Sequence record: PV340542
DNA: 40,128 bases
Source of the DNA: Escherichia phage mEp506
Direction: 5' to 3' (one strand)
Below, piece after piece: positions 37,165-38,490 of this stretch (its first letter is position 1; every line of letters begins with the position of its first letter). The translations under genes and the position numbers were made by a program. Below the pieces are notes generated by a model that saw nothing but the letters and a program-made list of their open reading frames with translations, had not been told where the DNA came from and made no database searches.

Positions 37165-37467
37165 ATGGCTTATGGAATACAGACCTGGGATGCTTCAGGA
37201 AAACCCAACAACTATGGCATCAAACCCGTTTCCGTCGTTGGGCGAATACAGCTGGCTGCCGGGCAAACCTCCGGCAGCTGGTCTTTTACGGTACCTTCAG
37301 GAATGAAGGTCGGATTTGTTCTTTCACTTGATGAAGGCGGTAACAGCGTAGGGCGGCGCATTGTCGCGTCAGGGAGCACAATAACCGTAAGCGCTGCATC
37401 TTCTGTAGGTCTGGGTAATTATCCGGCCTCAAAGTGTGAAGTGGTCGTTTTCATGGAGAAAGCATAA
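37165..37467 (+). CDS. hypothetical tail-region protein (100 aa)
   Basis: ORF directly after J; N-terminus resembles that of the next ORF. Confidence 0.55.
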   Translation: MAYGIQTWDASGKPNNYGIKPVSVVGRIQLAAGQTSGSWSFTVPSGMKVGFVLSLDEGGNSVGRRIVASGSTITVSAASSVGLGNYPASKCEVVVFMEKA

Positions 37468-38105
37468 TGGCCGAATTTGGCGCGATGATATTAATGGACA
37501 ACGGGAACCCATTTGTAACGCCCCAGTCAACGCCTTTTTGTCTTTACGGCAAGTACACTTTCAACTCCTCTGCTAATGGCAGTTCGCAGCAGGTTGCTCA
37601 GAATATTGCATTAAATGCTGACTACCCTGTGATGGTATTTATCAGGACCACAAATACCGCCCAGCCCACGCCAGTAATATCTTACCGGAACGGCGGAAAT
37701 ATATATGTCGCGGGGGTTAATCCCTATAACCAGAGCTTCACGTTAACCGCATATATTTTTGCCATATTTCCCCAGACGTTACCGAAATGGGGGATGGCCA
37801 TCTGGGATTCGAGCGGGAAGCTGGTACTCACTAATGAGTCCCGCGTGCTGTCAGACTTGCAGACAATCGGAACGCCTGGAGCAAACGGCGGGATTAACAT
37901 TGACCAGACGCTTGATGGTTCATGGGCAGTGGCTCCATCAAGGCTGGGGCAAGTGAACAGAAACGACGCTTACTCATCTTGTAGGTATTCAGGCACAAGT
38001 ACAAGAATAAACGCCGGTACAGCCGCAAATACACCTGGCGGTGATGGAGGGGTGATAAATAATGGAATTATCCTGACAGCAATTAAAACAGACGCCTATG
38101 ACTGA
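37467..38105 (+). CDS. hypothetical tail-region protein (212 aa, Gly/Asn-rich)
   Basis: ORF overlapping the previous stop; composition suggests a fibre-like or beta-rich protein. Confidence 0.55.
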   Translation: MAEFGAMILMDNGNPFVTPQSTPFCLYGKYTFNSSANGSSQQVAQNIALNADYPVMVFIRTTNTAQPTPVISYRNGGNIYVAGVNPYNQSFTLTAYIFAIFPQTLPKWGMAIWDSSGKLVLTNESRVLSDLQTIGTPGANGGINIDQTLDGSWAVAPSRLGQVNRNDAYSSCRYSGTSTRINAGTAANTPGGDGGVINNGIILTAIKTDAYD

Positions 38106-38212
38106 TTGTTTTGAGCGATCAATAACAAATAATTTATCTATCTAATCAATTATACCCATCGATTATGTATTGGTATCTTCGAAGCTACTGAATACCTCTG
38201 GATACTATCAAA

Positions 38213-38446
38213 ATGAAAAGGCTAATTATCTGCATAGCGGGCGCTTTAATGCTGTCTGGTTGCGCTGGTGTACTTGAGAAACAGAAACCGATTTGCAGCG
38301 GCACGGCATATATGGGTGGCCATGAGAATACCGTTATGATTTACGCCGTTCGAAAGCAAAACAACCAGACGCAATACCGGGCCGGATATCCCTTTAACTG
38401 GCGCTGGGTAAGTGCGAACACATTCACAAGCACGACATGTAAATAA
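38213..38446 (+). CDS. small lipoprotein (77 aa), possible Cor-like exclusion protein
   Basis: Signal peptide with lipobox MKRLIICIAGALMLSGC; location among tail-fibre genes where lambdoid phages carry cor/lom-type genes; function speculative. Confidence 0.6.
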   Translation: MKRLIICIAGALMLSGCAGVLEKQKPICSGTAYMGGHENTVMIYAVRKQNNQTQYRAGYPFNWRWVSANTFTSTTCK

Positions 38447-38466
38447 CTCATGATTTTCAATGCAAA

Positions 38467-38490
38467 CCTCGCCTCGGCGGGGTTTTTTAT
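38467..38490 (+). terminator. rho-independent terminator after the lipoprotein gene
   Basis: CCTCGCC-tc-GGCGGGG followed by TTTTTT. Confidence 0.55.

Follow-up and report, generated by a model that had tools for sequence, protein, structure and literature searches.

A probable FhuA receptor-binding module downstream of the tail-tip gene J in Escherichia phage mEp506

In the 40,128-nucleotide stretch of Escherichia phage mEp506 that was analyzed (sequence record PV340542; hereafter the window), the tail-tip gene J is followed at positions 37165–38490 by three genes encoding proteins of 100, 212, and 77 residues. We propose, at a probability of roughly 0.7, that together they make up a receptor module and that the phage is a temperate, HK022-like siphovirus dependent on FhuA; within the module, a structural half is paired with an opposing moron half. 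The 212-residue protein is quite probably the FhuA receptor-binding protein (RBP) and would bind the receptor directly. The 100-residue protein may serve as a partner or adaptor for the RBP at the tip of J, a role to which we give even chances, and the 77-residue lipoprotein is almost certainly Cor, an exclusion lipoprotein known to block FhuA. The receptor-binding reading is supported by the fold of the 212-residue protein, which matches that of a solved phage RBP, by the absence of export signals from both proteins encoded between J and cor, and by their occurrence in phages that lack cor. The phenotype of Cor and the association of the locus with FhuA are taken from the literature.

The two genes between J and cor

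The preliminary description of this DNA had placed three open reading frames (ORFs) in this stretch, and they are found there on the plus strand, at 37165–37467 (100 residues), 37467–38105 (212 residues), and 38213–38446 (cor, a 77-residue precursor). Judged from their relatives, all three are real, conserved genes, because each matches a PHROG family (phrog_557, E = 2.4e-36 over residues 1–99; phrog_425, E = 1e-74 over residues 1–212; and phrog_1119, E = 2.4e-37, respectively) and has homologs in hundreds of phage records (345, 349, and 243 by tblastn). The post-J locus of HK022, phi80, and N15 is an already known locus, and the same gene order, gene lengths, and terminator are seen in HK022 genes 25, 26, and 27 (cor), in phi80 gp22, gp23, and Cor, and in N15 gp22, gp23, and gp24. 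The segment 36900–38520 is 99.4% identical in nucleotide sequence to phage HK022, spanning HK022_25, HK022_26, and HK022_27, and it also matches mEp235, HK633, HK106, and others. The three genes show no substantive difference from those of HK022, whereas the flanks differ, with a one-base homopolymer deletion in J here and a downstream tail fibre gene of 1248 nt as opposed to 1101 nt in HK022. When 25 kb were compared, ECP1 matched best (97.4% identity across 85% of the query), and by these comparisons the phage is a new HK022-like member of the Hendrixvirinae.

The coding arrangement ties the first two genes closely to J. In its restored frame (see below), J occupies 33613–37163 on the plus strand and ends with TGA at 37161–37163; the start codon of the 100-residue protein lies one base past this stop, and the start of the 212-residue protein overlaps the preceding stop codon (TAATG). 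These abutting and overlapping codons suggest translational coupling of the three genes. The order J, 100-residue gene, 212-residue gene on one strand is identical in HK022, phi80, N15, Klebsiella phage Sushi, Eho49, and a distant prophage (L008).

Hydropathy analysis of the 100- and 212-residue proteins identified neither a signal peptide nor a membrane segment, with maximum values over 19 residues of 1.27 and 0.82, as compared to 2.09 for Cor. AlphaFold models describe both as soluble, the shorter protein as a single beta-sandwich (predicted local distance difference test score, pLDDT, 82.9) and the longer one as two beta-sandwiches (pLDDT 85.4; predicted template modelling score 0.81). Both proteins are labeled as membrane proteins in PHROG and RefSeq (outer-membrane; membrane-associated), and these labels do not fit proteins that lack an export signal and a hydrophobic segment and are modeled as soluble beta-sandwiches. 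Neither protein belongs to a Pfam or NCBIfam family; the 100-residue protein has a weak Pfam match to Tailspike_C (E = 0.015) that falls below the cut-off. A sequence search of the PDB returned nothing significant for these two proteins or for Cor. The description of both as Gly/Asn-rich holds in part: the 212-residue protein has 10% G and 9% N, and the prominent residues of the shorter one are G (14%), S (14%), and V (13%).

The phylogenetic distribution of the pair is independent of cor. The 100- and 212-residue genes always co-occur and were found together in T1, phi80, N15, the Dhillonvirus phages JLBYU37, JLBYU60, Teewinot, and bob, and JLBYU41, all of which are described in the literature as FhuA-dependent. 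Among Klebsiella phage records, the pair is present in 111 and Cor in only 2; T1-like phages of Klebsiella carry the pair along with J and lack cor. Klebsiella phage Sushi, for example, has J, both genes, a terminator, and a tail fibre gene on the opposite strand, with no lipoprotein, and the prophage L008 has J, a 94-residue gene, a 307-residue RBP-like gene, and a tail fibre gene, again with no lipoprotein. At another distant locus (L009), a homolog of the 100-residue protein (E = 3.3e-14) precedes an RBP-like gene at the same position. T1-like and Dhillonvirus phages carry cor on the strand opposite J and the pair. Throughout, the 100-residue protein is better conserved than its neighbor, as shown by paired identities of 100 and 82% in phi80, 76 and 58% in N15, about 56 and 51% in T1, and 54 and 31–34% in Klebsiella phages; among the best 120 clusters, its identity ranges from 69 to 93%.

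The 212-residue protein shares its fold, in a clear structural match, with the solved LptD-binding RBP of phage Oekolampad (Bas18). Oekolampad, with its RBP and exclusion lipoprotein, and the Rtp44/Rtp45 pair (PDB 9RPT, 9RPS; PMC12685063) represent an LptD-type locus that also lies downstream of J, and the pairing of RBP and lipoprotein at the Oekolampad locus works like that of the 212-residue protein and Cor here. The differences are that the receptor in Oekolampad is LptDE rather than FhuA, that a single RBP chain of 321 residues takes the place of the 100- and 212-residue proteins, and that the RBP and lipoprotein genes are on the strand opposite J. The Oekolampad RBP belongs to Pfam family DUF6453 (PF20051), of which the 212-residue protein is not a member by sequence although the fold is shared. 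The DUF6453 name, which bacterial annotation gives to many prophage proteins, carries no hint of an RBP (Oekolampad locus, 4655–5844).

The domain architecture of the two proteins centers on arms that precede each beta-sandwich. The 100-residue protein consists of a conserved arm (residues 1–20) and a sandwich (23–99), and the 212-residue protein of arm 1 (1–20), sandwich 1 (25–100), arm 2 (100–125), and sandwich 2 (130–210). Conservation within the family of the longer protein is concentrated in residues 11–30, residues 91–160, and the C-terminal end, with the sandwich bodies varying. Residues 111–130, the most conserved segment, and the N-terminal arms of both proteins are the parts modeled with the lowest confidence in the monomers; such conserved, low-confidence arms may be strands that fold only against a partner. 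A motif is shared between residues 1–14 of the 100-residue protein (MAYGIQTWDASGKP) and residues 106–119 of the 212-residue protein (PKWGMAIWDSSGKL), with a BLASTP E value of 0.019, a profile–profile E value of 8.5e-5 (probability 60%), and p of about 2e-4 in a shuffle test of 30-mers. Outside this arm motif, profile comparison detected no significant sequence relation between the two. The similarity of their N-termini that had been noted earlier (MAYGIQTWDASGKPN versus MAEFGAMILMDNGNP) does not hold up: the local alignment score of 14 is at chance level against shuffled sequences (mean 16.0, standard deviation 3.6, p about 0.73), and N-terminal homology was rejected on this test. A three-fold domain repeat is not supported at the sequence level (100-residue family versus the N-terminal half of the 212-residue protein, E = 0.03; N-terminal versus C-terminal half, E = 0.28). 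By eye, the last ~45 residues of J (37000–37160 in the restored frame; ...GWKLDKGGTFENYGSTAGEGAMKLTNQTISVKDG...) resemble the arm motifs (TWDASGKPNNYG; GKLVLTNESRVL); profile comparisons of the J C-terminus with the motif were not significant (E = 0.13–0.21). The homopolymer frameshift described below lies inside this stretch.

An exhaustive profile search of 1.84 billion proteins with the 212-residue family yielded 129 clusters, nearly all of them stand-alone proteins of 205–240 residues. About 25 distant relatives match profile positions 1 to ~128 only and differ in the C-terminal domain. No fused protein combining the 100- and 212-residue sequences was found among the 1.84 billion representatives. 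Two candidates for such a fusion were rejected: P0253 (337 residues) joins a fragment of J to the C-terminal part of an RBP instead, and P0340 (1794 residues, 10 weak repeats) appears to match by chance.

Comparison with phi80 reveals a sharp mosaic, set between 36775–37773 on the one hand and 37874–38037 and 38213–38446 on the other. The body of J is mostly ~50–65% identical to phi80 in nucleotide sequence; identity rises to 95–100% over the last ~100 codons of J, the 100-residue gene, and the first half of the 212-residue gene, falls to ~50% in the second half of the 212-residue gene, and is 75–82% in cor. Because identity to phi80 drops within the 212-residue gene, one recombination joint falls inside the conserved inter-domain arm or directly behind it. 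This joint, together with the distant relatives that match only positions 1 to ~128, suggests that the C-terminal domain of the 212-residue protein is exchangeable and that its N-terminal half and arm 2 form an attachment module traveling with the J tip and the 100-residue protein.

Cor and its presumed transcription unit

The preliminary description had noted in the third gene a lipoprotein with a terminator of its own, placed where lambdoid phages carry lom/cor-type outer-membrane or receptor-blocking genes, and for the lipoprotein, at the moron position after J, this reading is borne out. The product scores 138.8 bits (cut-off, 31; E = 4.2e-41) with the NCBIfam equivalog NF047972 (lamb_exclu_cor, “phage exclusion lipoprotein Cor”), its residues 1–76 aligning to model positions 1–76 of 78; the PHROG assignment and the identity to HK022 point to the same protein. 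The Cor proteins of HK75, mEp235, HK446, HK544, and other phages have the very same sequence (100% identity). The predicted lipoprotein signal peptide comprises residues 1–16 (MKRLIICIAGALMLSG/C), with K/R at the N-terminus, a hydrophobic core (Kyte–Doolittle value as above), and an LSGC lipobox whose cysteine to be lipid-modified, Cys17, is encoded at 38261–38263. According to the standard Lol sorting rule, lipoproteins without an aspartate after the lipobox cysteine are destined for the outer membrane. Since alanine, and not aspartate, follows Cys17, the rule points to the outer membrane for Cor. Cys28 and Cys76 could form a disulfide.

Directly 3' of cor, an intrinsic terminator at 38464–38491 on the plus strand consists of a 9-bp stem with five G–C pairs (38464–38485) followed by the T run TTTTTTATT; its folding energy is −17.3 kcal/mol (z = −2.4 relative to shuffled sequences), and a terminator is annotated at the equivalent place in mEp235, HK633, HK542, and phi80. 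Upstream, an AT-rich spacer of 107 nt (38106–38212, plus strand, ~37.5% G+C) separates cor from the late tail genes, and a promoter belonging to cor itself is presumed to lie there. The same layout, with spacer upstream and terminator downstream, is found in HK022, phi80, and N15. A strict sigma-70 scan for a cor promoter was negative, and a four-phage alignment of the spacer with phi80, N15, and Eho49 revealed no clearly conserved −35/−10 pair. Because the promoter was not recognized, the moron architecture of cor is confirmed for the spacer and the terminator only.

Cor of HK022, N15, and phi80 inactivates FhuA, excludes FhuA-dependent phages, and protects lysogens (PMC3594210; bioRxiv 10.64898/2026.03.26.714494). 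As relayed in PMC3594210 and in bioRxiv 10.64898/2026.03.26.714494, Uc-Mass et al. 2004 report inactivation of FhuA and exclusion for Cor of HK022, N15, phi80, and mEp167. Cor has been predicted to resemble Llp of phage T5, which binds the periplasmic face of FhuA (bioRxiv 10.64898/2026.03.26.714494; PMC13164509). T5 offers a parallel in its two-sided strategy aimed at the same receptor: FhuA is bound at its outer face by pb5, a monomeric RBP mounted on a trimeric tip, and is bound and blocked from the periplasmic face by the small lipoprotein Llp. The likeness in fold between Llp and Cor comes from published models. At the sequence level there is no detectable similarity; when Cor was compared by phmmer with every chain in the PDB, including Llp in the FhuA:Llp entry 8A60, nothing matched at E values up to 1. 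The T5 genes reside at another locus, and pb5 is treated as an independent origin of FhuA recognition (bioRxiv 10.64898/2026.04.02.716166). Phage lambda provides a positional parallel in lom, a prophage-expressed gene that likewise sits as a moron after J and before the side tail fibre genes. Its product has a signal peptide and forms a beta-barrel in the outer membrane, and none of the three proteins here is such a barrel.

Receptor-binding model and its alternatives

Based on these data, a simple model can be proposed for the module. J and the 100- and 212-residue proteins would be made together late in infection, and the 100-residue protein and the N-terminal half of the RBP would dock on the J trimer at its C-terminal tip, which is presumed to receive both. 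The 212-residue protein would act as a monomeric RBP with two sandwiches, in which the conserved region of residues ~1–128 (N-terminal half and inter-domain arm) attaches to the tip, and contact with the outer face of FhuA falls to the variable parts, chiefly the exchangeable C-terminal domain; we infer this assignment of attachment and receptor-contact parts. The 100-residue protein, better conserved and equipped with the same arm motif, would be the adaptor linking the RBP to J. Binding of the RBP to FhuA would then trigger infection. Cor, in turn, would be expressed from a unit of its own, both in lysogens and following infection, and would reach the inner leaflet of the outer membrane and block FhuA, so that kin and competitors could no longer adsorb productively.

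Published work is consistent with the structural half of this model. Comparative studies tie the locus to FhuA specificity (PMC8594841; bioRxiv 10.64898/2026.04.02.716166; PMC12309495), and its proteins have been termed “bona fide RBPs” with co-located accessory proteins (PMC8594841; bioRxiv 10.64898/2026.04.02.716166). The Dhillonvirus homologs have been modeled as an immunoglobulin-like trimer and a “hand-like” RBP (PMC12309495), and the published support for an interaction of this RBP type with FhuA consists of AlphaFold models (PMC12309495; bioRxiv 10.64898/2026.04.02.716166).

Several observations weigh against the model. The support for an RBP is made up of correlation, modeling, and a fold match, and no direct experiment placing either protein in the virion or on FhuA was found in the literature consulted. 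Cryo-electron microscopy of the T1 tail tip did not resolve the distal tip of J and so shows no such proteins. The fold match of the 212-residue protein is to the binder of another receptor, LptD, and a sequence-level link to the family of that binder, which was sought, is not significant: the 212-residue protein had no Pfam hit to DUF6453 at E values up to 0.1, and hhalign of its family against the DUF6453 alignment gave E = 0.072 with a probability of 0.8%. A recognizable cor promoter is absent from both the strict scan and the alignment. One 2026 paper has the 100- and 212-residue proteins assisting Cor (PMC13164509). Finally, the role of the 100-residue protein is the weakest part of the model, since this protein could instead act as a chaperone during assembly or form a tip of its own as an alternative.

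The proposal of assistance to Cor amounts to a different reading of the whole locus, in which the three genes form one superinfection-exclusion cassette and the 100- and 212-residue products are envelope proteins that help Cor block FhuA. It was made in the KanT1 paper (PMC13164509), where Foldseek and HHpred had given no hits and no structural relatives of the two proteins were found, and the preliminary description had leaned the same way by likening the position to that of lom/cor-type outer-membrane or receptor-blocking genes. The three genes are indeed adjacent and co-occur in FhuA phages of E. coli, and the membrane labels of PHROG and RefSeq are in line with an envelope location. We consider the cassette highly improbable, and the comparison with lom/cor-type genes holds for Cor and fails for its two neighbors. 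Because these have no signal peptide or transmembrane segment, abut J, occur without cor in the 111 Klebsiella phage records and the L008 prophage, and have cor on the opposite strand in lytic relatives, they are better understood as structural than as exclusion proteins. In mEp506 itself, cor is set off from the pair by its spacer and has its own terminator. The 212-residue protein, moreover, has the fold of a solved RBP, and low membrane affinity has been computed for the Dhillonvirus homologs (PMC12309495). The 100- and 212-residue proteins are most likely conserved structural components of the tail tip, the outcome that the preliminary description had itself set against an exclusion role.

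Two further alternatives concern the 100-residue protein. As a non-virion assembly chaperone, it would fold or attach the 212-residue RBP in the manner of lambda Tfa or T4 gp38-type factors; its small gene, whose stop overlaps the RBP start, its constant co-occurrence with the RBP gene, and the use of a single 321-residue RBP without such a partner at the LptD-type locus would all accord with this role. We regard it as unlikely, since a structural interface is the better fit to a protein that shares an arm motif with the inter-domain arm of the RBP and travels with the J tip in the phi80 mosaic; a diffuse virion band of ~13 kDa in a distant phage, to which no identity was assigned (PMC12309495), also speaks against a non-virion factor. 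Less plausible still is the first hypothesis of PMC12309495, according to which the 100-residue protein is an alternative receptor-binding tip, an immunoglobulin-like trimer that replaces a missing C-terminal domain of lambda-type J, each virion being capped by either the 100- or the 212-residue protein. The 100-residue protein is the most conserved of the three, which would not be expected of a receptor-contacting surface under selection, and it is identical in phi80 and HK022, whereas the 212-residue protein and Cor differ. The two genes always co-occur, and the modeling in the same paper favored the 212-residue type of protein as the tip and FhuA binder.

Within the receptor-binding model, the two proteins might be arranged as a split, three-unit cap with pseudo-threefold symmetry, to which the 100-residue protein contributes one unit of arm plus beta-sandwich and the 212-residue protein two. 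The three arms would then converge into one sub-domain docking on the threefold J tip. We hold this arrangement to be doubtful. The hints are suggestive: three conserved, low-confidence arms recur ~100 residues apart across the two proteins; the Oekolampad RBP lacks cryo-electron microscopy density at residues 1–25, 113–142, and 206–234, with the same spacing; the combined length of 100 + 212 = 312 residues is near 321; and in the hhalign alignment, itself not significant, arm 2 of the 212-residue protein falls on the third density-free segment of Oekolampad. If true, a split cap would reconcile the trimeric state of the fibre with the monomeric state of the receptor, and the single-chain, 321-residue LptD-type RBP would be its fused form.

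Sequence quality, flanking genes, and significance

The J protein has Pfam matches to FNIII-A_GpJ (E = 1.6e-50), Phage_Tail_Tip (E = 3.7e-46), and Phage-tail_3 (E = 5e-13). In the window its frame breaks at a run of five G residues (37033–37037), so that the listed ORF ends at 37080; HK022 has six, and alignment to HK022 shows a single missing G in J. Among the matches listed, no phage record or complete E. coli genome is 100% identical to the G5 allele, the best being 99.7% identical to targets one base longer. Relative to HK542, eight 1-nt indels occur in the window, all of them homopolymer deletions in this sequence (base before the missing one: 24313, 25829, 26333, 29116, 30011, 31771, 33594, and 37032), affecting runs of G, T, A, or C that are 5–8 bases long in HK542 and one shorter here. 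They split the tape-measure gene into 27096–29213, 29201–30022, and 30058–30375 and gene K into 31473–31862 and 31727–32182, and they shorten J. These deletions are most likely sequencing errors, through under-calling of homopolymers, rather than prophage decay, and J is therefore probably intact.

The next late gene after the cor moron, outside the module, encodes the side (lateral) tail fibre at 38505–39752 on the plus strand (phrog_1591, E = 1e-69; phrog_1980, E = 3e-57), with a weak match at its C-terminus to Peptidase_S74, an intramolecular chaperone (E = 8.9e-4, below the Pfam cut-off). A longer version of this ORF begins at 38460; because it overlaps the cor terminator, 38460 is probably not the real start. 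Upstream of the module, three regions stand out. A 74-residue ORF with a hydrophobic N-terminal segment (32230–32454) lies between gene K and the I-like gene, where HK022 has its gp20 moron. HK542 lacks ~450 bp that are found here, in blocks of 192, 120, and 136 nt, between the I-like gene and J (33112–33600); this region holds a minus-strand ORF of 71 residues (33232–33447), and its position matches that of two HK022 morons, gp22 and srb (gp23). Relative to HK542, J also carries in its distal part, at 36275–36374, an insertion of 96 nt (32 codons), which is gapped against phi80 as well and falls where J has only weak Pfam matches of coiled-coil type.

As a locus, the region is textbook HK022, and the value of the analysis, which is modest, lies in the evidence on two genes described as hypothetical. 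The FhuA-, LptD-, BtuB-, and YncD-type proteins of this locus have been treated as unrelated families (bioRxiv 10.64898/2026.04.02.716166). The structural match between the 212-residue protein and the LptD-binding RBP suggests that at least two of these RBP types (FhuA and LptD) are built on a common plan, and the link in fold argues against the membrane and exclusion reading of PMC13164509. More generally, the assignment can help to predict which receptors T1-like, Dhillonvirus, and HK022-like phages use and to re-engineer that specificity, and it makes a case for correcting a misleading membrane annotation that has spread across hundreds of genomes.

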